Made by a program: the position numbers and the translations under genes. A stretch of 64,000 bases of DNA from an uncultured Gammaproteobacteria bacterium (GTDB lineage: Bacteria; Pseudomonadota; Gammaproteobacteria; CAMYKB01), in NCBI GenBank assembly GCA_947258875.1, contig CAMYKB010000003.1, forward strand, positions 12,358-76,357, written 5' to 3'. The notes beneath the pieces are model-generated. The model was not told the DNA's origin, did no database searches, and was given only the letters and a program-made list of their open reading frames with translations. This document shows, piece by piece, positions 3,423 to 61,032 of this stretch. Numbering within the stretch: position 1 is the stretch's first letter; each line of letters starts with the position of its first letter.

Positions 3423-4469
3423 ATGAACGTGCTTCATCGCCAACAGTTCATCGCATTATTGTTGTGCCTGATCATTTCGGCACTTGTCTTTGCTGGTTCC
3501 GCGCGTGCTGGACATGACGGCGCCGCCTATCATGAGTTCTCAGCTGATGCCCGGCAACAGGGCCGCGAAGCGCATCTTGCTTTTGCCTGGACTTACGGTT
3601 TCTATGAAGAGCCTAAGGTTCTGAATTACTTGCGTTCAGTCGGGGCGCGTGTCACTGAGCGCCTGCCTTACCGCATCAGGTTTTATATCCTCGATACAGA
3701 TGATGTCAATGCCTATGCAGCCCCTGGCGGCTGTATTTATGTCACGCGGGGCATGTTGGTACATTTAAATTCTGAGGCTGAGTTGGCAGCGGTGCTGGGT
3801 CATGAACTGGCGCATGTCATGGGTGATATCGGTGGGCTTGATGAGGTGTCCAGGAATACCTTGCGTGCAATGCTCGATGACGGTGCTGAGTTAAATCTTA
3901 GTAATACGGGCGACACTCAGGCACAACCCGATATGTTGCATACTAGGATGCGCAGATACGAGTTGGAGGCGGACCGGATATCGTTCGAGTTGCTGGTGCT
4001 GAGAGGCTATAACGCGCGTGCTCTGATCGATGTAATTCGCATGTTTGACGATTATGACCGCATGGTTAATGACATTCCTAAATCACATGCGCCACACCAT
4101 CAGGGGCTGGTGCACCTGTCCAACATTCATCCCGATAATCAGCGGCGCATTATGATGCTGCAGGAGGCTGTGTCTCGTTTCGATGCACAACATGCTGAAG
4201 ATGGCCGCGGCCGTTATCTGGCAATGATTGAGAATATCCGCTTTGGTAATCAGCCCAATTTAAAGGCAACGGATTCCGCATCGGATTTTCTGCAGAGGCA
4301 TGAAGTACGCAAGTTAAAACTGCTGCGTGTAGAAGGTGGTGCGCGTTATGCCGATCTGGCTGCTGACAGTAGTCTGGGGGATTCTGCCGAAGCCGTGTTG
4401 CGCACCCTGAATCGCGCTTATCCTGTGGGAGAACCTATATCAGGCGAATTTATCAAAATAATCGAATAG
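3423..4469 (+). CDS. M48 family zinc metallopeptidase (secreted)
   Basis: HEXXH motif LGHELAHVMGD. Signal peptide present. Conserved C-terminal tail LRTLNRAYPVGEP shared with the downstream paralog. Confidence 0.8.
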   Translation: MNVLHRQQFIALLLCLIISALVFAGSARAGHDGAAYHEFSADARQQGREAHLAFAWTYGFYEEPKVLNYLRSVGARVTERLPYRIRFYILDTDDVNAYAAPGGCIYVTRGMLVHLNSEAELAAVLGHELAHVMGDIGGLDEVSRNTLRAMLDDGAELNLSNTGDTQAQPDMLHTRMRRYELEADRISFELLVLRGYNARALIDVIRMFDDYDRMVNDIPKSHAPHHQGLVHLSNIHPDNQRRIMMLQEAVSRFDAQHAEDGRGRYLAMIENIRFGNQPNLKATDSASDFLQRHEVRKLKLLRVEGGARYADLAADSSLGDSAEAVLRTLNRAYPVGEPISGEFIKIIE

Positions 4470-4877: not shown

Positions 4878-5924
4878 ATGCGTTGGTTTATAGCTTGCAC
4901 TTGTTTGCTACTGACCGCCTGTGCCACAAGCAATAATGCATTGCAGCCCACTTCACTGGCACCCACCCGTGCTTATGATGCGGCCGATCAGCATCGCAAT
5001 GCTGAGGCCAACGAGCGCTTCAACGAGCTATTCGGCTTCTATGAAAACAAAGCGTTGCATCATTATGTGCGCGCAGTAGGTTCGCGAGTCAGCGCGCACC
5101 TGCCCTACGATTTCAAATTTATTATTCTCGATACGGATTACGTTAATGCCTTTTCGGTGTCGGGTGGAGATATCTATATTACACGCGGCATGTTGGCGCA
5201 TCTCGCTACCGAAGCCGAACTCGCAGCCGTGTTGGCGCATGAGGTTGCTCATGTTGTAACGCAGCACAGTGTGCGGAACCATCAAACTATTCCCGCCACA
5301 CCTAAATTTACCAAGTTTTTCGCGAACTGGTCCGGTACGCAAAAATTTGAGGACGGTGTCAGACAAGGACGGACTTCCGGGGCGGTGCGCGGCGCAGCTC
5401 AGCAAGACGAATTAATGGCCGATCGCCTGGCCATCGATTACCTGAAAAAGAGTGGTTACCAGACTTCCGCCGTGCTGGGTATGTTGCGCCTGATCGAAAG
5501 TGTGCAGCAGCTTGAAAAAGAGCTGGCGACTTATGTTGAAAGCCCAAAATTTAACGGTCAGATGCTTACTGGCCATCCCGCTATCGGGCAACGTTATGCT
5601 GAAGTGGCCAAGTGGACCGAAACCGCGGATGTTGTGCAGAATCAGCGAGATCGTAAGCGTTACCTGGACATCATTGAAGGTATGGAATATGGCAACGATA
5701 TTCAAGATCCGCGCATGTATGCCTTGGGAACCAATGACATGCAACAGCAGCAGTCACAGCAGTTGCGCATCCAAGTGGTTGCAGCGGGTGATGGCGAAAC
5801 ATACGCCGAGCTATCCAGGTATTGCCGCCTGCAAAACAATGCCGAAGCCATAGTACGTACCCTGAATAGGGCCTACCCTGAGGGTGAGCCACAGCCGGGC
5901 CAGCTCGTCAAGATCGTCAAGTAA
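4878..5924 (+). CDS. M48 family zinc metallopeptidase, lipoprotein (tandem paralog of 3423..4469)
   Basis: Lipobox LLTACATS. HEXXH motif LAHEVAHVVTQH. Same length (348 aa) and shared C-terminal motif VRTLNRAYPEGEP. Confidence 0.8.
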   Translation: MRWFIACTCLLLTACATSNNALQPTSLAPTRAYDAADQHRNAEANERFNELFGFYENKALHHYVRAVGSRVSAHLPYDFKFIILDTDYVNAFSVSGGDIYITRGMLAHLATEAELAAVLAHEVAHVVTQHSVRNHQTIPATPKFTKFFANWSGTQKFEDGVRQGRTSGAVRGAAQQDELMADRLAIDYLKKSGYQTSAVLGMLRLIESVQQLEKELATYVESPKFNGQMLTGHPAIGQRYAEVAKWTETADVVQNQRDRKRYLDIIEGMEYGNDIQDPRMYALGTNDMQQQQSQQLRIQVVAAGDGETYAELSRYCRLQNNAEAIVRTLNRAYPEGEPQPGQLVKIVK

Positions 5925-7307: not shown

Positions 7308-8267
7308 TTAGTACTCAAACGTATCCTGTTGTTTTTTCAGTTTTTTAACCTGGTTCTCGATTGCCGGGATATAGCGCAAATACTCCACCAGGGCATCGAT
7401 ATCGTCGTCAGTGAGATGTTGTAGGCTGTTGTCGACGACCTCTGCCATGAGGCTACCGGTGAAATCACCATCGGGTGTCATGCCCTGTTTAAGGAAGCTA
7501 TGCAAGTCGTCAGCTGACCAGTTGCCGATGCCTGTTTTTTTGTGTGGGGTGATATTAGGAATGGTTTCTCCATCGGGCCCGTTTCTGGTGCCCGCATAAA
7601 ACATCTTTGCATTCAGTGCGCCGCGTGCATTACGTGGCGTATGACATTCCCCGCAATGTGCGATGGCGTTGGCAAGATACGCGCCTCGGTTCCAGATTTC
7701 ATTCTGGTCAGGGGCCGCTTGAAACTCGCCGGGCTTGAAGTACAGCTTCTGCCATGCCCAGTTGACCAGGCGTAAGCGCAGATACCATGGCAGCACGTGC
7801 GCCTTGTTGGCTTGATTAACAGATGGCAGGCCTTGCAGGTAGGTGAATATGACGGCCATATCCTGTGTTTGCATCTGGTGATACGAAGTATAGGGAAACA
7901 CCGGATAGTAGTAACGGCCCTTGGGGTCTATCCCGTAGCGCAGGGCGCGGATAAAATCACGCAGTTCCCAGTTGCCTATGCCGGTTTCTGTATCGGCCGT
8001 AATGTTAGGCGAATAAAACACGCCCAGATCAGTTTCAATGCGTCGCCCACCGGCGAGTGGAAGGCCGTTATTGTCGTCGTCGGTATGACAACCCAGGCAG
8101 CCTGCGGCGTTGAATATATATTCGCCTTGGCCGATTAAGTCGTTGTGATCAAGTAACTCTGGAGATGCGATGGGCCGCAAGCGCGGCCAGATCAGCGCAT
8201 CAAAAGAAGCCCATGCAACAACGAGTAGCAGGGGCCATAAAATAACACGGCGTAGTTTACGCAACAT
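7308..8267 (-). CDS. Dihaem c-type cytochrome (alcohol/gluconate dehydrogenase cytochrome-subunit-like)
   Basis: Two CXXCH motifs (CLGCH, CGECH), each followed by GIGNW segments. N-terminal TM/signal anchor. Confidence 0.75.
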   Translation of the reverse strand: MLRKLRRVILWPLLLVVAWASFDALIWPRLRPIASPELLDHNDLIGQGEYIFNAAGCLGCHTDDDNNGLPLAGGRRIETDLGVFYSPNITADTETGIGNWELRDFIRALRYGIDPKGRYYYPVFPYTSYHQMQTQDMAVIFTYLQGLPSVNQANKAHVLPWYLRLRLVNWAWQKLYFKPGEFQAAPDQNEIWNRGAYLANAIAHCGECHTPRNARGALNAKMFYAGTRNGPDGETIPNITPHKKTGIGNWSADDLHSFLKQGMTPDGDFTGSLMAEVVDNSLQHLTDDDIDALVEYLRYIPAIENQVKKLKKQQDTFEY

Positions 8268-8322
8268 CAATAATTAAGGGGAGTAGGATCACTTGTGATC
8301 CACTCCCCGTAATACAATTTGA

Positions 8323-8787
8323 CTATTCTTGTTTTTCGCGAAAATCCTTGTGACAGCCTTTGCAGGATTTGCCCAGTGCCTGGAATTTGGCGCCTATTGC
8401 TTCCTTGTTTCCGGATCCTGCAGCTTGCGCAAATTCATTTGCGGCCTTTGCTGACGCATCAGCGGCTTTTTTGAAGTCGTCCCATTTCTCCCAGACTTCG
8501 GGCTTGGCGCGTGTCGGGGTATCACCAAAGTCGGAACCTTCAGGGAAAAGCGCGGTGATCTCTTTCGATAAGTTTGCAATCGCGTCAGCGTGCATTTGTA
8601 AATGGCCCTCGGGGTTGACCTTGCCTTGTGCGATCTGGGCGGCTGCGCCGGTATGTCCGCCGAGTGCCTTCATCATAGCCTGTCGATACTTGATGCTGTT
8701 CTCTGGGCTGTCTCCAGCATAAGCAGCGGTTGTGCAAAACGACACTGCAGGCAGTGTAAGAGAAATAATAAGACGACTGATGTTCAT
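8323..8787 (-). CDS. Cytochrome c' (class II cytochrome c)
   Basis: Signal peptide. Four-helix-bundle-like sequence with a single C-terminal CKGCH. GGAGAGGAGAAC RBS before the ATG at 8787. Confidence 0.7.
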   Translation of the reverse strand: MNISRLIISLTLPAVSFCTTAAYAGDSPENSIKYRQAMMKALGGHTGAAAQIAQGKVNPEGHLQMHADAIANLSKEITALFPEGSDFGDTPTRAKPEVWEKWDDFKKAADASAKAANEFAQAAGSGNKEAIGAKFQALGKSCKGCHKDFREKQE

Positions 8788-8857
8788 GGTGTTCTCCTCT
8801 CCTTGTAGCAGATATTTAGTTCTCACTTACGAAATAACCAGACTCACTGGTTGTCGG

Positions 8858-10246: not shown

Positions 10247-11599
10247 ATGTACCAGGTTTATATCTCGTCGACTTATACAGATCTGCAGGATTTCCGTGCT
10301 ATCGCGGCCAAGGCTGTGCGTCATCTGCAGTGCCGCGCGGTCGCGATGGAGGACTACCTGGCCAGCGATGAGCGCCCGCTCGACCGCTGTCTGTCGGATG
10401 TGCGCGCCAGTAATGTGTATGTCGGTTTGTTCGCCCGGCGCTATGGCTTCACACCGCCCGGCCATGACAAGAGCGTCACCCACCTGGAATATGAGGAAGC
10501 CGGCCGGGCTGGTATACCGCGCCTGATATTTATCCTCGATGAGGCGGTGGACTGGCCGGATTCAAACTGTGATCCAGATCCTTCAGCGATCCGGCAACTG
10601 CGCACAGCACTACAGGAAAAGCACCTCGTCAGTACCTTTCGCAGTGGCGATGAGCTTGATGCCCGCCTGACGGCTGCGCTGAGCCAGGAATTGCTGAAGC
10701 GCGGCGGCAGTGGCAAGGTCGAAATACCGGAATTATTGCCCTATATGAGTGACCGCAGCCGGCAGCGTGACCAGTTGGCCGATGCGCTGGATGTCCACCT
10801 CGACAAGCGGCCACGGCGGCCCTTTGTCGCGATCGTCTATGGCGATGAACGCGAGGCGCACAGCGCCTTCCTGGAACGGCTGGAGCGGGTGACGTTCCCC
10901 GATCTGCTCGGGCTGAGTGCGGAAGCAGGGCCGGTGCATCATCTCGATCTGCGCTGGAGCGAACCTGGAGGTTCCCTGGACGAACGCGAACGACGCCTGC
11001 AGTGCCGTCTTTCCGAAAGCCTGACCGGCGAGCGCCGCGCGGATACACAGACCATGGCACAGGAACTTGCCCGGCACCGCTGCGCGGTGATGATTTCCAC
11101 CTCGATTCTGAGTGCCGACTGGCAGGCGGACGAGGCGAAACTCGTGCAACACTGGCTCAAGCTGTGGAAGGCCTGGCCGGACCTGCCACCTGGTCAGAGG
11201 TTGGTCATTGTATTGAGTTTTCATCTTAAGGACTGTTCGCAGGCCTCGTTCTGGGCGCATCGCAAACTCATCAAGAAGAATCGATGCGTCTGCGAATTCG
11301 TGACCGAACTCGAGCGGCTTGCCGGTGACGATCTATCGCTTGTAAGCCTCGACAGGCTGGAAGCTATACGCGAGTCTGATGTGCTGAACTGGCTGGAAGA
11401 GCATGCCGGGAAGTTCTGCCGTGAATCCCGTGGTGCGATCCGTGACCCACTGGTGCTCGCAGAACAGCTCAAGCCCTGGCTGCGCGAATTTTTTCGCAAG
11501 GAGGGTGTAGCGGACGAATCGGGTGGTATTCATATGGAGGAGCTGGCGCGTGAACTGCGGCGCCAGCTGCACCGCTGTTTAAACGAAGGAGGAATCTGA
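10247..11599 (+). CDS. DUF4062 (TIR-like) domain protein with C-terminal degenerate P-loop/STAND-like region
   Basis: N-terminal MYQVYISSTYTDLQDFRAIAAKAV...NVYVGLFARRYG is the DUF4062 signature. GGGAGCGG RBS before the ATG at 10247. Segment PFVAIVYGDEREAHSAFLERL looks like an NTPase strand-1/P-loop position lacking GK[ST]. Stop is 3 nt before the next gene. Confidence 0.7.
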   Translation: MYQVYISSTYTDLQDFRAIAAKAVRHLQCRAVAMEDYLASDERPLDRCLSDVRASNVYVGLFARRYGFTPPGHDKSVTHLEYEEAGRAGIPRLIFILDEAVDWPDSNCDPDPSAIRQLRTALQEKHLVSTFRSGDELDARLTAALSQELLKRGGSGKVEIPELLPYMSDRSRQRDQLADALDVHLDKRPRRPFVAIVYGDEREAHSAFLERLERVTFPDLLGLSAEAGPVHHLDLRWSEPGGSLDERERRLQCRLSESLTGERRADTQTMAQELARHRCAVMISTSILSADWQADEAKLVQHWLKLWKAWPDLPPGQRLVIVLSFHLKDCSQASFWAHRKLIKKNRCVCEFVTELERLAGDDLSLVSLDRLEAIRESDVLNWLEEHAGKFCRESRGAIRDPLVLAEQLKPWLREFFRKEGVADESGGIHMEELARELRRQLHRCLNEGGI

Positions 11600-11602
11600 C
11601 CC

Positions 11603-12598
11603 ATGGCAAACGCCAACTGGTATCAAGGCACGGGAGCACAAAGCACAACGGCGGTCGACCTGCCGGCATCGCTACTGGATCGGCACGCCAATCCGGCAGG
11701 CTATTTGGCTGATCCCGGTCTCGTAGACGCGGTCAACGTCGCGCTGCATCTTGGTCAACCCCTGCTGTTGACCGGGCAACCAGGTACCGGCAAGACCCAG
11801 CTCGCCAACAGCCTCGCCTGGGAACTCGGCTACGAGCCGTTGCTCAAGTTCGAGGCCAAGTCGACCAGCGTTGCGCGCGATCTGTTCTACACCTACGACA
11901 CCCTGGGCCGCTTCCACGCCGTGCATACCGGCCAGGGCGCTGCCGATAGCCTCGACTATATCCGCTTCAACGCCCTGGGGCTGGCGATCCTGCGCGCCAA
12001 CGATCCCGCCGACGTGGCCCAGCTGCTGGCCGATAATACGCAACATACCGGGCAGCAGCGCTCGGTGGTGTTGATCGATGAAATCGACAAGGCGCCGCGC
12101 GATTTCCCCAACGATCTATTGAACGAAGTGGAGGGCATGTATTTCAGGATCCCCGAGCTCGGCAATGCGACCGTGACCTCGGCGCCTGAGTTGCGGCCGA
12201 TCCTGGTGCTGACCAGTAATTCGGAAAAGAACCTGTCCGAAGCCTTTCTGCGGCGCTGCGTCTTCTACGACATCCCCTTTCCTGATCGCAAGCGTCTCAC
12301 CCACATTGTGCACTCGCGGCTGGGCGAGGCGATTACGGGGCAGGGGGCGCTGCTGGAGGATGCACTCAACCTGTTCGAACGCCTGCGCGATCCGGCCAGT
12401 GGCCTTCATAAGAAACCTTCGACGGGCGAATTGCTTGCCTGGCTGCAGGTACTTGTCACGCATTCGCAAGACAACGATGACTACATCCGCACTGCAGCCA
12501 TGGTCGAGCCGGCGCTTGCTGCGTTGATCAAGACCACCGAAGACCGGCCGAAAGCGCGCGAACTGCTCAAGGACTGGTTGAAAACGAAACCGGCGTGA
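11603..12598 (+). CDS. MoxR-family AAA+ ATPase
   Basis: Walker A LLTGQPGTGKTQLA. Walker B VVLIDEIDKA. Sensor/Arg finger region LVLTSNSEKNLSEAFLRRC. Stop codon overlaps the GTG start of the next gene (GTGA). Confidence 0.9.
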   Translation: MANANWYQGTGAQSTTAVDLPASLLDRHANPAGYLADPGLVDAVNVALHLGQPLLLTGQPGTGKTQLANSLAWELGYEPLLKFEAKSTSVARDLFYTYDTLGRFHAVHTGQGAADSLDYIRFNALGLAILRANDPADVAQLLADNTQHTGQQRSVVLIDEIDKAPRDFPNDLLNEVEGMYFRIPELGNATVTSAPELRPILVLTSNSEKNLSEAFLRRCVFYDIPFPDRKRLTHIVHSRLGEAITGQGALLEDALNLFERLRDPASGLHKKPSTGELLAWLQVLVTHSQDNDDYIRTAAMVEPALAALIKTTEDRPKARELLKDWLKTKPA

Positions 12599-15500
12599 GC
12601 ACGACCTCCGGCAACACGTCGATTGATCCCTCTGTCGAACCGGGAGACGCGGTAACGCTTGATGGCGACAACCTGCTTTCCCTGCTCGATAGCCTGCGAC
12701 ATGACGGGTTTCCCATCGGCGTTAAGGAATATATCACCGCACAGGAAGTCGCCATCGCCTGCAGTGATGATTATGGCATCGACCCAACGCGGCTACGCAA
12801 CTGGCTGGCGCCGGTCCTGTGCACTAACCCCGACGAACAGAGATTGTTTTACCAGCGCTTCGCCGACTGGTGGGTGCAGCGGCAACCGGTAACCGCTATA
12901 CACACGGTTGAACCAGCGCCGGTAAAAACCGAGCTTGACGAAGATGTACAACGCGCACGTCCCTGGAAGTGGGTGGCACTTGCGGTCGGGTTGATTGCAG
13001 TAGCAGTGCTTGTTCCGCCGCTGCTGAAGCAGCCCGAAAATATTACACCGCCGCCAGTCGTGTCGGGGACCGAACCATCGCAGCCAGTGCGTCCCGACCC
13101 GTCTGTTTCGGTTGAGCAGGAGCCGGTTGGGCCGCAATTGCTCGTCACGGGTGAGGTTAGGGATATTGATGGACGGGTGATTGACGGCGCGACGGTGGTA
13201 GCGGTGAAGGAGTTGAAAGGACATGATGACCATGTTTGGTCTATAAACTTCAGCCCGGATGACACACGCGTGGTTACGGCGTCAAGAGATAAAACAGCGC
13301 GCATCTGGGAGGCAGTCAGCGGGCGCGAGCTTGCACGATTGGCGCATGATAAGTGGATCCAGTCGGCCGTTTTCGGTCCGAATGGCAGGCGCGTGCTCAC
13401 GGCGTCACTAGACGGCACAGCGCGTATCTGGGATGCTGTCAGCGGGCGCGAGCTTGCACGATTGGTGCATGATGGTTGGGTCAGTTCAGCCGTTTTCGGT
13501 CCGAATGGCAGGCGCGTGCTCACGGCGTCACTAGACGGTACTGCACGCATCTGGGACGCGGATAGCGGGCGCGAGCTGAGGCGATTGCCGGGTACGGAAG
13601 GGATCCTTTCCGCTGTGTTTAGCCCGGATGGCAAGCTAATTGCCACAAACGGCGTTGGCGCGAAGCTCCTGCACTGGGCCGGTAGCGACTCCACCGGCAA
13701 CTTCGATCTCACCTCCAACCTGATCGGCGGCACCCGGCTCCGGGTTTCCCACCCTGACTATCAGGATGCCTCATTGCACGATATACCCGATGGTTTCGGC
13801 AAGTTAACTGTCGAGGCCAGCCTGGCGCCACGCCCGGCACAGTGGCTGGAGGTATTTATACGCAATCGTGAGCTGACCCGTGTCACGCTCACTCTGCTGC
13901 CATTGCTGGTTGTTACCGCCTGGTGGTTGTGGCGGCGCAAACGTCGGCAGCTGATCCTGGAGCGGCGCACGGTACGCAACGTTGACGCGCTTGCAGGTGT
14001 TGCGATGCCCGAGCCGCAGCACAACCTGTATCGCGACGAGTCCTTTGTGCGCGCACGCATCGAGGCGCGGCGGCACCAGGCAGGCGGGCAAGGCGATCTC
14101 GATGCTGATGCCACTGTCGACGAAACGGTGCGGCAGCTCGGCTGGTTCTCGCCGGTTTACAAGACGCGTCTGCGCCTGCCGGCCTATCTGGCGTTGATCG
14201 ACCGCAGCGGCTTCCGCGATCAGCAGGCACATCTGATCGACGAATTCCTCGACTGTCTGGAAGAAGGTGGCGTGACGGTCGACCGTTATTACTTCGATCG
14301 CGATCCACGCATGTGTGTCACAGCAGTGAGTGGCGACAGCACCCGGCGCGCGGTGCGTGAACTCGCCGGCCGTTATCCGCAGCATCGCCTGTTGCTGTTT
14401 AGCGATGGCAGTGGACTGCTTGATCCCGTGACCGGCCGGCCTGCAACCTGGACAGAACTGTTTTCCGCCTGGCGCGAACGTGCGCTGATGACACCGGTGC
14501 CGGCCTTTCACTGGTCATCACGCGAGGTCGAGCTGGCGCGGTTGGGTTGTAGCGTGTTACCCGCGACACCTGAGGGTCTGTTGGCCTTTGTCGAACAGCT
14601 GGATGTGCCGGACAGTATTGTGCTGCCGCCAACGACGCACTGGCGTGCGCCATTCCCCGAAATCATCGCGGCGCATCCGGCGCGTTGGTTGCAACGCAAT
14701 GAACCGCAGCCGGAGGACAGTGACGAACTGCTGCGTCAGCTGCGGCGTTATCTGGGTGACGACAGTTACCGCTGGCTGTGTGCGCTGGCTGTTTATCCCG
14801 AACTCGACTGGTACCTGACGCTGTATCTTGGTTTGCATCTGCAGCGTGAGAATGGCACGCCGGTACTCGACGAAACGGCGCTCCTGAGTCTGGTGCGTCT
14901 GCCCTGGCTGCGACGCGGCAACATGCCTGACTGGTTGCGCCTGCGTCTCATGGCCGAACTGTCCAGCGATGATGAAAACACCGTGCGCGGGTTTTTGCGC
15001 GAACTGTTGCGCGCCCGACTGGAGGCGCCCGGTAGTCGCTTCCGCCTGGATATCGCGCATCCATCCGACAACATGCAGCGGCGCGGCTGGACCCGGTTCT
15101 TTTCCGATCTGCTGCGTACCGAGCCTGATGATAGTCCGCTGCAGGATCGCGTATTCGTCAATTTTCTGCTCGGCAAGCGTCCGCAGCGCTTGCAGGTGCT
15201 GGCGCCGCGCAACTGGCATCGCTGGGTTTATGAACGGGGTTTGAGTGCATTGGGTTTGCGTGAACGCACAGGGTTGTTGCTGGCGGCCAGCACATCTGTG
15301 CTGCTGGCGGTCAGCGCCTTTTCGCTGATTGATCTTGCCAAGGCAATACAGGCGGGCGGTAACGACTCGCAGATTGTCCAGCGCGACTGGCAACCGGCGG
15401 ACGAGCAGGCTCCACCACAGATTAAAGATGTTTTCGTGGAGAAATTTGGTGGTGGCTCTGGTATTCGCTATTCAGTACGCGATCTCAAGCTCAACGGTGA

Positions 15501-16653
15501 GGGTAACAACATTCGCCTGGCACAGGGCGGTCAGGTGAAAGCGACTCTGGAAATCAATCACGACTGTCGCGAATGCGGCGGCGCCATCAATCAGATCATC
15601 GTTGGCCTGGCCGGTGAAGACAGGGCGCAGGCCTGCGTCTGGAACGGTGGGCAGTCCAGTCGCGGCTGGCAAACGGTATCGTTCACACTCAGGATTCCGC
15701 AAGCACCGGGGAGCTACGAGGTGCGTACCCGCTACGCCCAGGCCTACAACTGTAAAGATGCAATCGGCTGGTGGAAGATAGACCGTTCCCAGGGACCAGG
15801 CGAGCAATCGACCATCGGCGTGGTGGTCGTTGAAGCTGTCTCGCAGCAAAACGATACCCGGCAGACGACAGCTAAACAACAGCCCAAGGCATCGGACGTC
15901 GTTGCAACGTTGAACGAAAAATGGCTCGCGAACGTCCTGCCTTTCTATAAAAAGGCTATCGAGGGACGTTATCCTTTCGATCTGAAAAGTGAGAAGAGCG
16001 TGACCTTGAAAGATTTCGGCATGTTCTTCGGTGAAGGCGGAATTGTGCAGCGCTTCACTGAACAAGAGCTGGCGCCCTACCTGGATACCTCGGGTGGTCA
16101 ATGGCGTTGGCGTGCTGAAGCGCAGGGTTTTTCAAGCGCATCATTAGTCGAGCTTCAACGCGCGAACCGCATCCGCGCAGCGTTCTTCCAGGACGGCGGG
16201 GAAATACCGTTGCTGCGGTTCAGCCTTAAACCCAGTCAACTCGACAAGAAGGCTGTTCGCTTCACGCTGGAGATTGACGGGCAACGCCTTCAATATGCGC
16301 ATGGCCCGAAACGTACCACAGACATAACATGGCCGGGCAACACCAGGCTCAAGCGCGCACTGTACACGTTTGAAGGTCTGGATGGTAAAAGCGCGAGCGT
16401 TAAGGAGGAGGGTGCGTGGGCATGGTTGAAGATTCTGGACCAGGCCAAGATTAGTGCAACGAGGGGCCAGGATGTTTCGCGTGTAACCTTCAGTAAGAAT
16501 AGTCTTTCCGCTAGCTTCGATCTGCAGACAAGCAAAGGAATAAACCCTTTCGACCAAGACTTGCGGAAATTCCATTGTCCGCAGCGTTTAAGTTCAGGTG
16601 GCAGCAGTGAACTGTCTCCGCCTCAGCCACCAACAATTATCAGATCGAAATAA
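12595..16653 (+). CDS. Large multi-domain membrane protein: TM – WD40 repeats – TM – vWA-like – TM – IcmF/TssM C-terminal-like domain
   Basis: 1352 aa. TM helices at aa ~123-143, ~428-446 and ~893-912. Four WD40 blades, aa ~205-360 (GH...TASRDKTARIWEA, TASLDGTARIWDA x2). vWA-like strands LALIDRSGF and LLLFSDGSG. C-terminal ~230 aa contain GAWAWLKILDQAKI, IDGQRLQYAHGP...ITWPG and NPFDQDLRKFHCPQRL, patterns I recognise from the TssM/IcmF periplasmic C-terminal domain. Translationally coupled to the MoxR gene. Confidence 0.8.
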   Translation: MSTTSGNTSIDPSVEPGDAVTLDGDNLLSLLDSLRHDGFPIGVKEYITAQEVAIACSDDYGIDPTRLRNWLAPVLCTNPDEQRLFYQRFADWWVQRQPVTAIHTVEPAPVKTELDEDVQRARPWKWVALAVGLIAVAVLVPPLLKQPENITPPPVVSGTEPSQPVRPDPSVSVEQEPVGPQLLVTGEVRDIDGRVIDGATVVAVKELKGHDDHVWSINFSPDDTRVVTASRDKTARIWEAVSGRELARLAHDKWIQSAVFGPNGRRVLTASLDGTARIWDAVSGRELARLVHDGWVSSAVFGPNGRRVLTASLDGTARIWDADSGRELRRLPGTEGILSAVFSPDGKLIATNGVGAKLLHWAGSDSTGNFDLTSNLIGGTRLRVSHPDYQDASLHDIPDGFGKLTVEASLAPRPAQWLEVFIRNRELTRVTLTLLPLLVVTAWWLWRRKRRQLILERRTVRNVDALAGVAMPEPQHNLYRDESFVRARIEARRHQAGGQGDLDADATVDETVRQLGWFSPVYKTRLRLPAYLALIDRSGFRDQQAHLIDEFLDCLEEGGVTVDRYYFDRDPRMCVTAVSGDSTRRAVRELAGRYPQHRLLLFSDGSGLLDPVTGRPATWTELFSAWRERALMTPVPAFHWSSREVELARLGCSVLPATPEGLLAFVEQLDVPDSIVLPPTTHWRAPFPEIIAAHPARWLQRNEPQPEDSDELLRQLRRYLGDDSYRWLCALAVYPELDWYLTLYLGLHLQRENGTPVLDETALLSLVRLPWLRRGNMPDWLRLRLMAELSSDDENTVRGFLRELLRARLEAPGSRFRLDIAHPSDNMQRRGWTRFFSDLLRTEPDDSPLQDRVFVNFLLGKRPQRLQVLAPRNWHRWVYERGLSALGLRERTGLLLAASTSVLLAVSAFSLIDLAKAIQAGGNDSQIVQRDWQPADEQAPPQIKDVFVEKFGGGSGIRYSVRDLKLNGEGNNIRLAQGGQVKATLEINHDCRECGGAINQIIVGLAGEDRAQACVWNGGQSSRGWQTVSFTLRIPQAPGSYEVRTRYAQAYNCKDAIGWWKIDRSQGPGEQSTIGVVVVEAVSQQNDTRQTTAKQQPKASDVVATLNEKWLANVLPFYKKAIEGRYPFDLKSEKSVTLKDFGMFFGEGGIVQRFTEQELAPYLDTSGGQWRWRAEAQGFSSASLVELQRANRIRAAFFQDGGEIPLLRFSLKPSQLDKKAVRFTLEIDGQRLQYAHGPKRTTDITWPGNTRLKRALYTFEGLDGKSASVKEEGAWAWLKILDQAKISATRGQDVSRVTFSKNSLSASFDLQTSKGINPFDQDLRKFHCPQRLSSGGSSELSPPQPPTIIRSK
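13313..13560. repeat. Near-identical tandem ~123 bp nucleotide repeats encoding WD40 blades
   Basis: gtcagcgggcgcgagcttgcacgattgg(c/t)gcatgat...gccgttttcggtccgaatggcaggcgcgtgctcacggcgtcactagacgg occurs twice almost perfectly (13313-13435, 13436-13558), with a diverged third copy following. Confidence 0.85.
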
Positions 16654-18223: not shown

Positions 18224-20605
18224 TTATTTGGTCTCGCTGTAGGCCTTGAGCAATTTGTTCATTAGCTCGATGTGCTGCGCGTCGTTCAGCTGACCTTTGG
18301 TGGACACTTTTGCCCACAACTCTGCATTGGTCATTTCACGATGGCAGCCCATGCACAATCCGGTACGATCCATGGCGTCACGCATCTCTTTGGGTAATGC
18401 GCGCGATAACGGCCAGTGTGTGCCGACTGTCTGAACCTGTTGGTCATCCTTGATAATCGTCGACCAGTCAAAATCCAGGGCCTCAATCTTGGGAATCTGG
18501 ATCTGGTAGTTCCTGGGGATGACTTTACCGGTCTTCTGATCAATCAGGTCTTCAACGATATCCACCGGATAACGCGTCTGGAATACACCACCGGAAATAC
18601 CGTACCCCATTGCCTTCGGATTGTTATGGCAGGACTCGCAGGTACGGGCCTTGCGCTGTGCCGAATGCGGTTGCACCGGTGCCATATCAAGTGCCAACGG
18701 AGTACGCTCCTGTCCCAGCTCTTTCTGCTCGTCGTACGATAAAGCTATCTGGTCGAGAGCAACGGTTCTGCCGTCACGCGCTTTAACGGTGTAAACGATC
18801 TGGCAGCCCGGCATTAATGGGGTAACACGGCCCTCACCGTTGATACCCAGTACCGGTTCTTCCCAACGCAGGTAAGCACGAGTTTCATACACCTTACCAG
18901 GACTCTGAATACCTTTTACGCCTAGCGGTGACTCAGCGGTTGAACCGTCCGGGTTGCGTTGACTGCCGGATGCAATCCAGTCGGTATCATGTTTAGGTTT
19001 ACCATCTTTGTCTTTGCCGTAGTCAACCTGTACATGGCAGCCATAACATTGTGGCACCCATGATGCGTGGCAGGCATAACATTCCAGGCTTTCGGCATGT
19101 TTTTGGACCCGGCTCATGGCCACCATGGCATCCGGACTCTTCCACGCGTTGTCGATCTGCAGCTGTTTAAGCAACGGAACTTCAAAGTCATTGCCGGTTG
19201 CCGAATGCAACATGGCCTTCTTGCCATCCTTGACAACGTTGCCGAATGGATTGCCACGGGCGGTCTTCAGATAACCATCCTTCTTGTCGTACAGCGTGGC
19301 GAAGGCTGCGGTTTCCGGCAGTGGGCTCGTGGCCAGACCACGCGCTTTGCCGGTCAGTGGTTGGTCAAATTCCTCGCCATGTCCCAGCGGTAATTCCCAG
19401 GGGAATTGCTCTGGCGTGCCATGGCAGTCCTGGCATTCAATTTCCACCTGTGCCAGCGTGGTGCCCGGAATATTGCCATCACCATGCATGTCGATCGATG
19501 TATGACAATCCTGGCATAGCAGGCCACCTTCGGGATTCCCCGGGCGGCTCTTGATCTGGTGATGCAGATCATCAGAGATAAACAGGTACTGCTTGGTGTG
19601 CAGTTTTGGCTGTTTTTCGCCTTTCTCGTTGAACGGCGAACCGTAAGGGAACTCCATCAATCCCTGATACGTCACGCCGATACGCTTGCCGCGATTGTGG
19701 CAGGAGTTGCAGGTCTCGACGGGGATACCCGAATACTCAATACCACCATGAGTCACTTTGGACTTGCGAGTAGACTGTATCTGGTGGGTCAGCATGTGGC
19801 CCTTTTCTGTCTTGTCGATGGTCGGGTCATTACCTTCGTAGATGCCTTCATTGCCATAGGCTATGTGGCAGGCTGAACACCCCTGACCGCGGTAATCACC
19901 GCGTTTTTCACGGCCCTTGACTGTAACGTGGCAGCGTTGGCATTGCTGGCGCTGGTAGGTAAAGCCAGCAAGCTTCGGGTTTTTCTCGATGTCTTCGACC
20001 GATGGGTTGGGTATTTGCGACAATTCAGTGGGGAACTGTTCCTTGTGCGCGGCTATCATGTCCTTCATGTAGGCCTTGTAGTCATCGGTACCCACAGCAG
20101 GTACAGGTCCGTCACCGTCCTTGATATCATAATTACCCCAGGGAACCTTATGATTCTGCACCTCTTCGATGCCCCAGGTGTGCAGGTTGCCCTGAATCTT
20201 ACCGGCTTCGGTATTCATTAAGGATTTTTCCAGACGTTCAGAATAGCCCAGGTGGCAGGCGCTCTGACCACAGGTAAATTTGTTGACATCCATCGCCCCG
20301 GGATCTGGGTAAAACGTTTGCGGGCCGTTGGCTTGCTTTAGTGTCGCCGGTGAGCCGCTGTGAGCCGCTTTTGCCTCGCTTGCGCCTGGGTTGCCGCCAT
20401 GGCACATGACGCAACCTTGGCTATCCCCGTGCGATGAACCCAACGCCTTGATCATTGCCATCATGGCGCTGCCTTCCTGGCGTATCTGTTCGAGGCCGTT
20501 GTGACAACTCATGCAGCCTTCGCCGGCTCCGATCTTGGCATCTGCAGTGAACGTGATAAATAGCGTAACGAGGAATAAAGCTAGTGCCCTTGCGGTCGTT
20601 CCCAT
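18224..20605 (-). CDS. Multihaem c-type cytochrome (~12 haem-binding motifs), secreted
   Basis: 793 aa with signal peptide and GAGAGGG RBS. 11 CXXCH motifs (CMSCH, CVMCH, CQRCH, CSACH, CNSCH, CQDCH x2, CYACH, CYGCH, CESCH, CMGCH) plus one CX4CH (CGQSACH). Confidence 0.85.
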   Translation of the reverse strand: MGTTARALALFLVTLFITFTADAKIGAGEGCMSCHNGLEQIRQEGSAMMAMIKALGSSHGDSQGCVMCHGGNPGASEAKAAHSGSPATLKQANGPQTFYPDPGAMDVNKFTCGQSACHLGYSERLEKSLMNTEAGKIQGNLHTWGIEEVQNHKVPWGNYDIKDGDGPVPAVGTDDYKAYMKDMIAAHKEQFPTELSQIPNPSVEDIEKNPKLAGFTYQRQQCQRCHVTVKGREKRGDYRGQGCSACHIAYGNEGIYEGNDPTIDKTEKGHMLTHQIQSTRKSKVTHGGIEYSGIPVETCNSCHNRGKRIGVTYQGLMEFPYGSPFNEKGEKQPKLHTKQYLFISDDLHHQIKSRPGNPEGGLLCQDCHTSIDMHGDGNIPGTTLAQVEIECQDCHGTPEQFPWELPLGHGEEFDQPLTGKARGLATSPLPETAAFATLYDKKDGYLKTARGNPFGNVVKDGKKAMLHSATGNDFEVPLLKQLQIDNAWKSPDAMVAMSRVQKHAESLECYACHASWVPQCYGCHVQVDYGKDKDGKPKHDTDWIASGSQRNPDGSTAESPLGVKGIQSPGKVYETRAYLRWEEPVLGINGEGRVTPLMPGCQIVYTVKARDGRTVALDQIALSYDEQKELGQERTPLALDMAPVQPHSAQRKARTCESCHNNPKAMGYGISGGVFQTRYPVDIVEDLIDQKTGKVIPRNYQIQIPKIEALDFDWSTIIKDDQQVQTVGTHWPLSRALPKEMRDAMDRTGLCMGCHREMTNAELWAKVSTKGQLNDAQHIELMNKLLKAYSETK

Positions 20606-21013: not shown

Positions 21014-22558
21014 TTATTCCACTAACGCGGCCTGGATCACGCCGACGCGAATGCTGTTAAGCACGGCCTTATCTTTCGCCGGGCCCAACCCTGTAGGAAC
21101 CACTACGGCCTTGCCCGCGGCGAGGCTGCGAATATCGCGGGTGATCTGGCGGCGCTTTCCCTGTGCATCCGGGTATTGTACGGCGACCTTAACATTGCGC
21201 ACTGCATAGGATGTCGGGTTTTGTACCTGCACCACCACATAGCCGTTCTGATTGAGACCAACCCGGGTCTTAATGTAATTACCCGGGTTTTGCGGCAGAT
21301 CCAGTCGCAGCAGTGATTGCGAGGCCTGCTTGCCGGGTTCGGAGTTGGAACCCGCTGCTGCCTTGTAATATTTCAGGGCGCTGGCACGATCACCGGCGGC
21401 CAATGTCAGGTTGCCGAGTGAATTCAGCGCGGTCGCGGTGGGCAACAATTTAACACTTTGCTCGAGATCGCTGCGTGCACCGCTGCGATCACCAAGACGC
21501 TCGCGTGTGAGGCCGCGCTGTACGTAGTAATGAAAAAACTGATTGTTATACTGCAACGCCTTGTTGTAGTCGGCGAGTGCTGATTTGAGGTTGTTTTGCT
21601 GAAACTTTGCGTCGCCGAACAACGAATGAAATTGTGCCTCTCGCGGTTCCATACGAATGGCTTTTTGTGCCAGAGTCATCGCCTTACGGGTATCGCCCTT
21701 GGCCAGGGCTTTGCGGCCCTCGTCGTGGGCCTTGTAGGCTTCGCGGCTGCGTTTGATGTGCGCTATCTTGCTTTGATAGCGCTGTGTGCCCAGTTCTCCA
21801 CCTGATGGCAGGCTTTTCGCGTGTTCGATGTTGTTATCGACACGTTCCTGTGACGGCGGGTGGCTGGCAAACAGGCCGGATAACCAATCTGACCGCCGGC
21901 CTTCGGACAGGCGTACGAAGGTTTCTTGTAGGCTGATGGCGGCACGCGGATCGTAACCGGCTTTGGACATGTAGTTCATGCCATAAAAATCGGATTCGCG
22001 TTCCGCGTCACGGCCGTATTTTTGATTAAGCAGGCCCGCCGCAAGTTGCGCGCCACCGACAGCGAGATTGGCGTAATCGCTATCGCGTGCGGCAATGCCG
22101 GTTGCCATGATGGCGCCTTGCAGCAGCATGCCGCGTTCCATACCTTTGGCGCCATGACGTGCGGCGGCATGTACCACTTCGTGACCCAGTACCGCGGCAA
22201 CTTCAGCTTCGTTATTGAGTTCCACCAGCAGTCCACGGTTGACGGCGATTTTGCCGCCGGGCAGCGCCCATGCGTTAGGTGTGGAGTTGTTGAGTACCAC
22301 GAATTCATAGGGTAATTGCCGGTCACTGACGGCGGCCAGGCGGTTGCCGATACTCTGCACATAACGCGTCAGTTCCTGATCGACGTTGTATTGGCCACCC
22401 TGCATCTGCTGGCTCACCAAGTAGTTCTGTTTGCCCAGCTGGATTTCCTGGGCTTCAGACACCAATGTGAGTTCGCGTTCTCCCGTTACAGGATTAACGG
22501 CACAGCCCTGTAACGCAACCGCCGCAAGTATGAATGCATAAAGGATGTTTCGCATCAT
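21014..22558 (-). CDS. BepA/YfgC-like M48 metallopeptidase with C-terminal TPR domain, lipoprotein
   Basis: Lipobox ALQGCAV. HEXXH motif LGHEVVHAAARH. TPR-like C-terminal half. Start at MMRNILY (22558), preceded by GGGGA. Confidence 0.8.
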   Translation of the reverse strand: MMRNILYAFILAAVALQGCAVNPVTGERELTLVSEAQEIQLGKQNYLVSQQMQGGQYNVDQELTRYVQSIGNRLAAVSDRQLPYEFVVLNNSTPNAWALPGGKIAVNRGLLVELNNEAEVAAVLGHEVVHAAARHGAKGMERGMLLQGAIMATGIAARDSDYANLAVGGAQLAAGLLNQKYGRDAERESDFYGMNYMSKAGYDPRAAISLQETFVRLSEGRRSDWLSGLFASHPPSQERVDNNIEHAKSLPSGGELGTQRYQSKIAHIKRSREAYKAHDEGRKALAKGDTRKAMTLAQKAIRMEPREAQFHSLFGDAKFQQNNLKSALADYNKALQYNNQFFHYYVQRGLTRERLGDRSGARSDLEQSVKLLPTATALNSLGNLTLAAGDRASALKYYKAAAGSNSEPGKQASQSLLRLDLPQNPGNYIKTRVGLNQNGYVVVQVQNPTSYAVRNVKVAVQYPDAQGKRRQITRDIRSLAAGKAVVVPTGLGPAKDKAVLNSIRVGVIQAALVE

Positions 22559-22829
22559 GTAGATCGTCCCCGGTGGGTTTGGGTAAGTGCACAGGCAATA
22601 TTGCCTGGAACCTATCTCAAAGTTTGTCTCACACGCCAATTCAGTGCTGCGGTCCGCGCCTTTATGTCATCAGGTATTGTTATGACGCGCGATCCACGAG
22701 TTGAGATAGATTCTGGTAGTTAATTTATACGGACTCTAGCATGTGTTTGTGCCTCCGGTGCCTGGTGAGCGCCGGGATCAGCGGGGATTTCACAAAACGT
22801 TACAAAATAGAGACCGGGCAGGGCAGTGA

Positions 22830-23988: not shown

Positions 23989-26900
23989 TCAACTGGGTTC
24001 ACTACGGAGTTTGGACTGTTTGATGACCAGGTAGACTGCGGGTATCACCACCAGCGTCAGCAGGGTAGCGCTGATCATACCGCCCACCATGGGGGCGGCG
24101 ATGCGGCGCATGACCTCTGAACCGGTGCCGCTGCCCAGCATAATAGGTAACAGGCCGGCGATGATTGCGGAGACAGTCATCATGATGGGTCGCACTCGCA
24201 GCAAGGCACCTTCAGTAATGGCTTCGCGTAATTCATCGAGTGTTATTCGGTGGGCGCGTTCGCCGTGATGTGTCATGCGATTATAGGCCTGGTTGAGATA
24301 CACCAGCATGATGACGCCGATTTCTACAGCGACGCCGGCCAGGGCGATGAAGCCGACGCCAACGGCAACAGATATATTATAGTCCAGTAAGTAGAGCAGC
24401 CAGAATCCACCCACCAGCGCCATCGGCAAGGTACCCATTATAATGAGCACTTCCGTGAGGTTGCGGAAATTCAGGTACAGCAACAGCATGATGATCAGTA
24501 TCGTAACGGGCACCACCAGCGTGAGGCGCTCTTTGGCACGCACCATGTATTCGTACTGGCCGGACCAGTTAATTGAATAACCGGCGGGTAATTCGACATT
24601 GTCGGCCACGACCTGGCGCGCTTCTTTTACATAAGAACCCACGTCGCGGTCCTTGATGTCGACAAAGGTCCAGCCGTTGGGGCGTGCGTTTTCGCTCTTG
24701 ATCATGGCTGGGCCATCCTCGACGCGAATATCGGCGACTTCGCCCAGCGGAATGCGGGCGCCACCCGGCGTTACCACCGGCAGGTTGCGTAACTTGGTGA
24801 CCGAATCACGGATGTCGCGAGGATAACGCACATTGATCGGGTAACGTTCCAGGCCTTCCACGCTCATGGCGACATTCATGCCACCGACTGCGGTACGCAC
24901 CACGTCATGCACGTCACTGATGTTAAGACCATGGCGTGAGGCGGCAATACGATCGATATCAGCAACAATATAACGGCCACCGGCGACACGTTCGGAGAAT
25001 GCTGACGCAGTGCCAGGCACCTGGCTAACAACCTTTTCAAGATCCTGGCCGATTTCCTGAATAACACCCAAATCCGGCCCGGCCACCTTGATGCCGACAG
25101 GCGTCTTAATGCCGGTCGCCAGCATATCGATGCGCGTCTTGATCGGCATCACCCAGGCGTTGGTTAGGCCGGGGTATCTCACCATTTCATTCAGTTCTTG
25201 CCTGATTTTTTCAGGTGTAATACCGGGGCGCCATTGATCGCGGGGTTTGAAGATAATGGTGGTTTCGATCATGGTTAGCGGCGCCGGGTCAGTGGCGGTT
25301 TCGGCGCGGCCGATCTTGCCGAAGACGCGTTCCACTTCGGGGTGCGAGCGTATTATTTTATCGGTTTGTTGCAGCAACTCCTGTGCCTTGCCAATGGAGA
25401 CACCCGGGAAGGTGGTCGGCATGTACATCAGGTCGCCTTCATCCAGGTCAGGCATGAATTCGGAACCGAGTTGCGTGACCGGCCATAAACCCACCGCCAT
25501 GATGATGATGGAAGCGAGTAAAACGGTTTTAGGTATCCTTAGTATGATGTTAATAAACGGCCGGTAGACCGCAATCAAAATCCGGTTGATCGGATTTTTA
25601 TGCTCGGGCGTGATATGGCCGCGGATGAAGTAACCCATCAAGACCGGTACCAGGGTAATTGACAAGCCAGCGGCGGCGGCCATGGCATAGGTCTTGGTGA
25701 AGGCCAGCGGCGCAAACAAGCGGCCTTCCTGTGCTTCCAGCGTGAACACCGGCAGGAAGCTCAACGTAATAATGAGTAACGAGAAGAATAACGGCGGGCC
25801 GACTTCCAGAGTCGCTTCGCGGACAATGCGCCAGCGGTTTTCATCGGTTAGCGGTTCACGTTCGATATGCTTGTGCACGTTCTCGATCATCACGATGGCG
25901 GCATCGACCATGGCGCCGATGGCGATGGCGATACCACCCAGCGACATGATGTTGGCATTAATGCCCTGGTTGTACATGACCACGAAGGCAATAAGGATGC
26001 CGATGGGTAAACTGACAATGGCGACAAAGGCTGAACGCAGGTGAAACAGGAATACCACACACACCAGTGCCACTACAATGAACTCTTCTACCAGTTTACC
26101 CTGCAGTGTGCTGACGGCACGTTTGATCAGCGATGAGCGATCATAGGTGGTGACGATCTCGACACCGTCCGGCAAGCCGTTTTGTAATTCCTCAAGTTTT
26201 TGTTTAACGCCTTCGATGGTCTTCAGCGCATTCTCGCCGTAGCGCATGATGATGATGCCGCCGACCACTTCGCCTTCGCCATCGAGTTCGGCAATGCCGC
26301 GGCGCATCTGTGGCCCGAGGCGGATATCGGCCACGTCCTTCAATAGGATAGGCGTGCCTTGTGCGTTCACACCCAGCGGAATACGCCGCAGGTCATCCAG
26401 CTCATTGATGTAACCGGTGGCGCGCACCATGTATTCGGCCTCGGCCATTTCAATTACCGAGCCACCGACTTCCTGGTTGGCCATCTTGATGGCCATACGG
26501 ATCTTGGCGAGCGGTAAGCCATAGGCGCGCAAGCGGTCAGGATTGAGTACCACCTGGTATTGCTTGACCATGCCGCCAACCGTGGCGACCTCAGACACGC
26601 CGGCTACGGTTTGCAATTCATACTTAAGAAACCAGTCCTGCAAGGAACGCAGTTGCGACAAATCCTGTGTGCCCTTGCGGTCGACGAGTGCGTATTCGTA
26701 GACCCAGCCGACACCGGTCGCATCCGGACCCAATGCCGGACGTGCCTCTGCCGGCAAGCGCGTGGCGACCTGACTTAAATATTCCAATACCCGTGAGCGT
26801 GCCCAGTAAGGGTCAGTGCCGTCCTTGAAAATTACGTACACATACGAGTCATTGAAAAACGAGTAGCCGCGGACGTTCACTGCACCCGGTACCGATAACA

Positions 26901-27117: not shown

Positions 27118-27126
27118 GACGGCCCC

Positions 27127-29966: not shown

Positions 29967-30080
29967 TGTACTAACTCCAACGCAGCTGCAGGTTGCGCAC
30001 TTAGCTGTGTATGATGCAGCGCATCTTCCGTAAACAAAAGAAAATAAGACCAACGCGGTTAGCGTAGGCTAACAGTGAGT

Positions 30081-54637: not shown

Positions 54638-54711
54638 TGGGGGATCGTCTAGTGGTAGGACTGCGGACTCTGACTCCGCCAACCTAGGTTCGAATCCTAG
54701 TCCCCCAGCCA
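54638..54711 (+). tRNA. tRNA-Gln (anticodon CUG)
   Basis: Cloverleaf folded by hand. 7-bp acceptor TGGGGGA/TCCCCCA plus discriminator G and CCA. D arm GTCT-AGTGGTA-GGAC. Anticodon stem GCGGA/TCCGC with loop cuCUGac. T arm CTAGG-TTCGAAT-CCTAG. Confidence 0.85.
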
Positions 54712-60844: not shown

Positions 60845-61032
60845 AAGGGTGCTCCGCCCTGCCGTTACAGCTTTCGACCTTGAACCAGAGGTTCAGGTGG
60901 GGGCTTCGGTGATGCTTAAGGCTTTCCGTTGACCGGACATGCACACCACATCATCTACTCGGCTCCCGGGGTAAAGAAATAGGCTCAAGGATTTTACCCA
61001 GCTGCTCACGTACAGGGCAGAGCGACCCAAAC
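60845..61032 (-). ncRNA. ssrS: 6S RNA (SsrS)
   Basis: Minus-strand sequence aligns to E. coli 6S: AUCCUUGAGCCUAUUUCUUUACC vs GUCCCCUGAGCCGAUAUUUCAUACC. GAAAGCCUUAA...CACCUGAACCUCUGGUUCAAGG...ACGGCAGGGCGGAG vs GAGAAGCCUUAA...CACCUUGAACCAAGGGUUCAAGG...ACAGCCUGCGGCGG. Located directly downstream of zapA, as in enterobacteria. Ends approximate (±10 nt). Confidence 0.75.

Follow-up and report, generated by a model that had tools for sequence, protein, structure and literature searches.

In a window of 64,000 nucleotides (64 kb) from an uncultured Gammaproteobacteria bacterium (assembly GCA_947258875.1, contig CAMYKB010000003.1, positions 12,358 to 76,357 of the forward strand; coordinates given below are those of the window unless another locus is named), a gene for a 1352-residue membrane protein, the third gene of a putative conflict operon, carries an array of four WD40 blades at 13222-13680. 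We consider it probable that this array is a hypervariable WD40 cassette that evolves in concert and has here been contracted in frame to an open half-propeller of four blades. An earlier note on this DNA had described the same place as a recent tandem duplication of a blade at the nucleotide level, in which two units some 95% identical would imply very recent expansion. The similarity between blades 2 and 3 is real but older and weaker than was first described: the units are not nearly identical, nor is their likeness very recent.

The 123-bp period and the unit coordinates of that note agree with both Tandem Repeats Finder (TRF) and direct comparison. TRF finds the period at 13294-13577 (+), with 2.3 copies and 88% matches, in a stretch that spans from the junction of blades 1 and 2 to that of blades 3 and 4, and a looser array at 13249-13633 with 3.1 copies and 78%. 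The quoted peptide was also right, 37 of the 41 residues being the same in the two units (the differences are A/V, K/G, I/V and Q/S), and the units are indeed WD40 blades, as they match both a blade hidden Markov model (HMM) and Pfam WD40 (5.2e-31, three stretches, amino acids 204-330). The third, diverged copy that was mentioned corresponds to blade 1 (72% identical to blade 2). The figure of 95% could not be reproduced, since every register tried gave between 82 and 89.4% identity: 108 of 123 bases (87.8%) for 13313-13435 against 13436-13558, 110 of 123 (89.4%) in the best register (13294-13416 against 13417-13539) and 101 of 123 (82%) in the register of the blades (13345 against 13468). At the protein level, blades 2 and 3 share 83-90% of their amino acids depending on the register (82-89% of their nucleotides), and three of their six amino-acid differences fall at blade positions 3-6. 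Blade 1 shares 66-72% of nucleotides and 59-63% of amino acids with each of these two, and blade 4 only 20-27% of amino acids with the other blades of the window.

The identity between the units is mosaic. Nine mismatches are clustered within 23 bp over the codons of HD[K/G]W[I/V][Q/S] and six synonymous changes lie within eight codons of DGTARIWD, while the clusters are separated by two perfectly matching tracts, one of 28 bp and one of 50 bp; the second of these tracts (13366-13415) is the longest exact repeat at an offset of 123. Between the units, the proportion of differing synonymous sites (pS) is 0.145-0.24, the lower value belonging to the best register, and the synonymous divergence (dS) comes to 0.16 in that same register and to 0.29 when the register used originally is aligned by codons, amounting to approximately one fifth to one third of what separates the gene from its nearest homologue. 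Since synonymous sites match too, the likeness of blades 2 and 3 exceeds what protein-level constraint or chance would give. For the whole gene compared with its closest homologue, pS is 0.51 and the corresponding proportion for nonsynonymous sites (pN) is 0.083; relative to this homologue the gene, which is otherwise intact, has evolved under purifying selection. The claim of a recent tandem duplication therefore holds in part: a lineage-specific duplication or conversion did take place, as blades 2 and 3 are each other's best match (83% of amino acids, against at most 63% to any of about 80 other blades from 10 homologues), but "nucleotide-identical" and "very recent" do not describe units with 88-89% identity and the dS just given.

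For the comparison with the rest of the family, we label proteins P and loci L. Among the members with WD40 blades in this loop, the window is the only one with four. Seven blades are found in P0002, L009 and L051, eight in P0003, P0004, P0005, P0007, P0021, L007 and L047-L050, and 16 in P0008, while in P0006 six are scored and the alignment also shows a degenerate stretch and a terminal blade. Of the more distant members, most lack WD40 in the loop; one of them has PASTA, and some have seven blades located C-terminally to a region resembling a vWA domain. The array of the window is the shortest in the family, and the expansion read from the repeat is not supported, because every other loop array has at least seven blades; the net history would be either contraction or assembly collapse. 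As for the similarity itself, nucleotide identity between blades varies widely in relatives, from 84-95% over six blades of P0002, through values of up to 86-87% in P0003 and P0008, to 50-70% in P0006 and P0007, so the blade pair of the window is unexceptional for the family.

Only the terminal blade can be recognised as orthologous across genes. Blade 4 of the window, degenerate as it is, shares 54-56% of its amino acids with the last blade of P0002-P0005. The DNA of the closest homologue, P0002, which is about 80% identical, can be aligned with an identity of 80% as far as 13226 and again, with 75-77%, from 13618 on, but not across blades 1-3, and the array is the sole part of the gene that cannot be aligned in this way; in that homologue the blades have a 43-residue period and a consensus unlike that of the window. 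In P0002, nine blade positions (3, 4, 6 and 22 together with five milder ones) show a pN of 0.41 and a pS of 0.10, compared with a pN of 0.009 and a pS of 0.157 for the other 34, although these site classes were picked post hoc, so that pN/pS is inflated and the figures are indicative only. By textbook WD40 geometry, the top face of the propeller presumably carries these variable positions, in its d-a and b-c loops. Units that are at least 80-85% identical, which is the usual mark of high internal conservation (HIC), are found in the window for blades 2 and 3 only and clearly in P0002. The array of the latter (L001 3838-4614, amino acids 206-463) is a far cleaner example of a conserved and hypervariable WD40 array than that of the window, almost all of its amino-acid variation being concentrated at blade positions 3, 4, 6 and 22. 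At the locus of P0008 (L006 3564-5080, minus strand), two stand-alone WD40 genes of 110 and 395 amino acids lie just upstream on the opposite strand, and these could be a reservoir for blade exchange. The proposal of a diversifying sensor propeller in a conflict system is thus sustained at the level of the family, in which the blade number takes values of 4, 7, 8 and 16, the array cannot be aligned with that of the closest homologue and variation in the latter is restricted to a few positions; the protein also belongs to a predicted conflict operon. The family has been found in Acidobacteriota, Nostoc, Trichodesmium, Okeania, Chloroflexaceae, Gallionella and Parabeggiatoa, and scans with the cytoplasmic region for closer relatives yielded nothing above 60% in genomes and nothing above 79% in metagenomes.

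About seven blades are needed to close a WD40 propeller. In the AlphaFold2 (AF2) model of the loop, the blades have a predicted local distance difference test (pLDDT) score of 86-98 and form 16 strands, while the flanks score below 50, and Foldseek relates the model to WD40 propellers with an E value of 2e-14. Aligned with the full propeller of ODA16, it covers 158 columns at 1.1 Å with a TM-score by target of 0.37. As modelled, the four blades are an open arc with normal curvature and not a closed four-blade ring. Propellers usually close with six to eight blades; this gene has four, and the model amounts to about half a propeller. We considered whether the missing blades might be supplied in trans and rejected this, since the blade HMM, run over all frames of the window, found no WD40 blades beyond these four.

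The reading that we favour would account for these observations as follows. The likeness of blades 2 and 3 would have come about through gene conversion or homologous recombination among the repeats that code for the blades, and not through a fresh duplication. Across the family, the same process would repeatedly homogenise the blades, alter their number (7, 8 or 16) and leave a few positions varying, and different lineages would have fixed different blade types. The pair in the window would be one such event of intermediate age, and the net history of its array would be the loss of about half a propeller. The view of the repeat as a hotspot for slippage and recombination needs a corresponding adjustment, as slippage is unlikely for units of 123 bp and recombination is the relevant process, with just 50 bp of exact identity available to it.

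Other histories have to be weighed against this one. It is unlikely, but deserves to be taken seriously, that the four blades are an assembly artefact, the true gene having seven or eight highly similar blades that a short-read assembler collapsed to four in frame. The window is the sole four-blade member of the family, the protein has been seen in a single draft contig of 110 kb at NCBI, and the 50-bp exact repeat is longer than small assembler k-mers. Moreover, a study of Podospora found that its highly conserved WD40 repeats of 126 bp yield shorter arrays in short-read than in long-read assemblies, "omitting or creating repeats" (PMC12222747). However, the units that were retained differ at 11-12% of their bases, the reading frame is intact and the sequence is without any mark of a join, and a relative whose blades are 84-95% identical was assembled with seven of them in a contig with about 4x coverage according to its record name. 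In any case, repeat counts taken from draft assemblies need verification before the four-blade state is interpreted.

A simple and very recent tandem duplication from three to four blades with slight drift since then, which is how the repeat was originally explained, we regard as unlikely. Blades 2 and 3 are certainly closest to each other and follow one another head to tail at a period of exactly 123 bp, and such a duplication could have followed an earlier, larger deletion, but the divergence described above is too great for this model, the high identity extends over 2.3 units and is mosaic instead of uniform, the relatives all have at least seven blades so that the net change is a loss, and neither three nor four blades close a propeller. 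Finally, we find it hardly credible that no recombination took place and that old blades are alike merely through selection on the WD40 fold. WD40 blades do share a strong consensus, and the 66-72% nucleotide identity of blade 1 with blades 2 and 3 fits ordinary old repeats; nevertheless, synonymous sites are conserved too (with the pS of 0.145 in the best register), there are 50 identical bases in a row, and the old arrays of P0006 and P0007 reach just 50-70%.

The repeat had also been credited with creating a long spurious open reading frame (ORF) on the opposite strand. This ORF exists, but antisense ORFs of 209-278 amino acids are found along the full length of the GC-rich gene, so it is a by-product of GC-rich coding and not of the repeat. 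As a gene it was rejected, because a Pfam scan matched it to no family and the sense frame is strongly homologous.

Features of the operon and of the array; aa, amino acids; TM, transmembrane
Feature	Positions	Strand	Basis
DUF4062 (TIR-like NADase, "DRHyd"/NIR) and inactive STAND module, 450 aa	10247..11599	+	Pfam DUF4062 2e-23, iSTAND 3.5e-15
MoxR/midasin-like AAA+ ATPase, 331 aa	11603..12598	+	Pfam AAA and AAA_5
Whole gene, 1352-aa membrane protein, vWA-like third operon subunit	12595..16653	+	ORF and translation; identical NCBI protein P0001
Predicted TM helix 1 (aa 121-147)	12955..13035	+	Kyte-Doolittle peak 2.48; no K/R in next 15 residues
CarboxypepD_reg/PEGA-like beta-sandwich, N-terminal strands	13126..13215	+	Pfam CarboxypepD_reg, aa 184-209
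WD40 blade 1 (aa 210-250), diverged	13222..13344	+	Blade HMM 67 bits; 72% nucleotide identity to blade 2
WD40 blade 2 (aa 251-291)	13345..13467	+	Blade HMM 64 bits
WD40 blade 3 (aa 292-332)	13468..13590	+	Blade HMM 66 bits; codon-by-codon comparison with blade 2
WD40 blade 4, terminal, degenerate	13594..13680	+	Blade HMM 10 bits
CarboxypepD_reg/PEGA-like domain, C-terminal part	13687..13854	+	Pfam match of spliced sequence; conserved in all homologues
Predicted TM helix 2 (aa 427-445), then RRKRRQLILERR	13873..13929	+	Hydropathy; 8 K/R in next 15 residues
vWA-like alpha/beta domain (~aa 527-672)	14173..14610	+	Invariant D (LIDR) and DG (FSDGSG) motifs
Predicted TM helix 3 (aa 891-920)	15265..15354	+	Hydropathy peak 2.2
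TssM/IcmF-like C-terminal periplasmic module (IcmF_helical and IcmF_C, aa 1104-1313)	15904..16533	+	Pfam PF21070 1.6e-8, PF06744 5.9e-26
Antisense ORF, 294 aa, judged spurious	12849..13733	-	ORF listing

The protein that holds the array is of composite architecture. When the WD40 blades were spliced out in silico, the flanking sequence gave a CarboxypepD_reg match of 34.5 bits (cut-off 32.3) that crosses the splice and covers profile positions 2-66 of 82. Because the flanks join into one match in this way, the propeller appears to be an insertion in a PEGA-like beta-sandwich, and in homologues without WD40 in the loop the CarboxypepD_reg/PEGA-like domain is unbroken. With AF2 confidence low in the flanks, the nested fold is argued here from the spliced Pfam match and not from structure. 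By the positive-inside rule, given the basic residues that follow the second predicted transmembrane (TM) helix and their lack after the first, the WD40 loop and the IcmF-like C-terminus would be outside the cytoplasm and amino acids 448-890 inside. The codons of the third helix contain a 24-bp tandem repeat at 15266-15315 (2.1 copies, 76% matches), which is probably a by-product of Leu/Ala-rich coding. The aspartates of the LIDR and FSDG motifs in the vWA-like region are invariant in the homologue alignment. At the sequence level, a vWA domain was found neither by Pfam at E values of up to 10 on sub-regions nor by a profile search of PDB sequences.

The C-terminal module matches the TssM model TIGR03348 over positions 933-1168, with 225.6 bits against a cut-off of 388. 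We rejected a reading of the IcmF domains as part of a type VI secretion system (T6SS), as the partial TssM match is below the cut-off and without T6SS neighbours; Pfam found none of the T6SS genes (TssJ, L, K, B, C, Hcp, VgrG) in the operon flanks and the largest ORFs, part of the ORFs of the window having been scanned.

The two genes that precede the one with the array complete the operon. The DUF4062-iSTAND protein is represented at NCBI in its 450-residue form. Its residue E81 (10487-10501, in the region SVTHLEYEEA) is a putative catalytic glutamate, being located at about the place reported for this residue in characterised DUF4062 NADases (E97 in KpSwz), and the pattern before it reads TH-LE. 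The stop of the AAA+ ATPase overlaps the start of the 1352-residue gene; its best matches among PDB sequences are AAA modules of midasin (1.3e-8), and no MoxR-specific model matched it. At every full-length homologue examined, the same three genes are kept in the same order and with the same sizes, the AAA+ protein always having 331 residues. The block at 10247-16653 lies on one strand with a GC content of about 0.60, compared with 0.50-0.55 in its flanks, and from its sequence it looks like a horizontally acquired ternary conflict operon of the iSTAND type. In three loci, a SLATT_1/DUF4231 gene of 151 amino acids is located directly downstream (L002 5629-6084, L003 13517-13972 and L005 13492-13947). 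PADLOC returned no match at the level of a system; all that it gave were weak hits to AAA models (TRIP13, IetA) and one to HEAT-ARM that was driven by WD40.

Domain identities and the literature suggest how such an operon might work. The periplasmic propeller would bind a ligand, the signal would cross the membrane to the vWA/AAA+ pair, and this pair would release the iSTAND-linked NADase, together with the SLATT membrane protein in relatives. For the window itself, another possibility is that the four-blade array is real and functional, and that two vWA-like subunits pair to form an eight-blade ring that couples a ligand outside to the MoxR/iSTAND/NADase assembly inside; we hold this to be quite improbable, but if true, such half-propeller pairing would give a bacterial abortive-infection system a diversifying receptor outside the cytoplasm.

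Several points weigh against a contracted cassette under concerted evolution and against the role proposed for it, in addition to the post hoc choice of sites in P0002. As only two units of the window gene are highly similar, the case for concerted evolution in this gene leans mainly on family patterns, and the direction of change, contraction, is inferred from parsimony and the need for about seven blades per ring. The half-propeller may be non-functional. The periplasmic placement of the WD40 loop is a prediction, and the vWA assignment, which comes from a fold search, is made at the level of the fold and does not separate the region from CheY-like folds. The SLATT gene of some relatives is not found in the window by tblastn, and none was seen in L001. 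Furthermore, all three operon proteins are singletons in a cluster look-up, the nearest relative being 79% identical, and the collections contained no second allele from this species, so that the differences in blade number are those between homologous genes.

The remainder of the window can be described briefly. The neighbours of the operon encode cytochromes, FKBP, M48 peptidases and TPR proteins. The M48 peptidases comprise two tandem paralogues of 348 amino acids (3423-4469 and 4878-5924) and a third fused to TPR (21014-22639). A cluster of c-type cytochromes at 7308-8826 and 18224-20605 contains cytochrome c, cytochrome c' and a multihaem protein of 793 amino acids with MtrC/MtrF-like domains, and its gene content suggests that the host may have a lifestyle based on metal or extracellular electron transfer. 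A Cus-like RND efflux operon (an AcrB-family pump, a CusB-like adaptor with HMBD and CusF, and an outer-membrane factor) lies at 23989-30053, and a multicopper oxidase is encoded at 35804-37147. The only Rfam and tRNA matches in the window are a 6S RNA gene at 60847-61026 (-), with 100 bits, and a tRNA-Gln(CTG) at 54638-54711 (+).

It is already documented, for fungal NLRs as well as for many WD40 proteins of prokaryotes, that repeat shuffling gives rise to near-identical blades, and the type of operon has been on record as a prediction since 2020. The repeat itself therefore matters little, the window being a weak example of blade shuffling, and is outweighed by its context: a compact three-gene operon in which a hypervariable WD40 cassette, predicted to be exposed to the periplasm, would be linked by way of a vWA-like domain and an AAA+ ATPase to an NADase module of the DUF4062 kind, the enzymology of which was shown just recently and in other systems. 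The combination of a WD40 cassette in a PEGA-like periplasmic loop with a TssM/IcmF-like C-terminus and a four-blade array is absent from the main texts of the papers cited here on such repeats and on the operon type, and "IcmF" has zero occurrences in the main text of the two papers on ternary systems from the Aravind laboratory. Should the cassette be a receptor, its family might reveal how an iSTAND ternary system senses something outside the cytoplasm.

Among known systems, the closest parallels to the array itself are found in fungi and prokaryotes. Highly conserved WD40 repeats with variation in number and hypervariable positions are established in fungal NLRs (PMC4986451, PMC12222747), and such repeats have also been noted in bacterial NLRs and in "highly repetitive" prokaryotic WD40 proteins. 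As in HET-E, HET-D and NWD of Podospora and in the repetitive prokaryotic proteins, the blade units are arranged head to tail, are about 123-129 bp long and have high nucleotide identity. Fungal and prokaryotic WD40 arrays share with this family a repeat number that differs among related genes and a few variable positions per blade, and they are likewise tied to systems of the immunity or cell-death type. Whereas alleles of HET-E and HET-D need 10-11 or more repeats, 80-100% identical, to be reactive, the window has only two highly similar units (83-90% of amino acids) in an array of four blades. Nor does this array form part of a STAND NTPase: it belongs to a separate membrane protein of vWA-like type, where it is nested in a PEGA-like domain within a loop predicted to be periplasmic.

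The operon as a whole resembles the iSTAND ternary systems that Kaur, Burroughs, Iyer and Aravind predicted computationally in 2020 (PMC7159879, section 20), which consist of an iSTAND protein headed by TIR/DRHyd, a MoxR AAA+ ATPase and a vWA protein. The definition allows TIR/DRHyd, a peptidase or EAD as the N-terminal signalling domain, and the vWA protein, which has two conserved aspartates and often an N-terminal helical domain, TM segments and PEGA, PASTA or OmpA, would in the authors' view act close to the envelope (PMC7159879). The window has DUF4062 and iSTAND in one protein of 450 amino acids, as the definition asks, in addition to an AAA+ ATPase of putative MoxR/midasin type and a large, variable protein with an N-terminal helical region, predicted TM helices, a putative vWA-like region and envelope-associated domains, one homologue of which has PASTA. 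It departs from these systems in that its vWA is undetectable by sequence, a WD40 cassette occupies the PEGA-like loop and the C-terminus is TssM/IcmF-like. With TssM/IcmF of type VI and type IVB secretion, the protein shares the layout with three TM helices, the large C-terminal periplasmic part and the IcmF_helical and IcmF_C domains, but just the last 230 residues or so match, no IcmF NTPase region was found and the conserved operon is a different one.

Experiments on other defence proteins have shown that DUF4062 acts there as a TIR-like NADase. As in the DUF4062/NIR systems Swarozyc, Avs2-NIR, Vulcan and Vesta, DUF4062 heads a STAND-type module in the window, and the operon includes a WD40 array. 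WD40 propellers are proposed or known to be signal receivers in TEP1/NWD1 and APAF-1. In contrast to sensors resembling APAF-1 and TEP1, and to the DUF4062/NIR proteins, the STAND module of the window is of the inactive type, and its WD40 array is carried by another polypeptide and is predicted to lie across the membrane.

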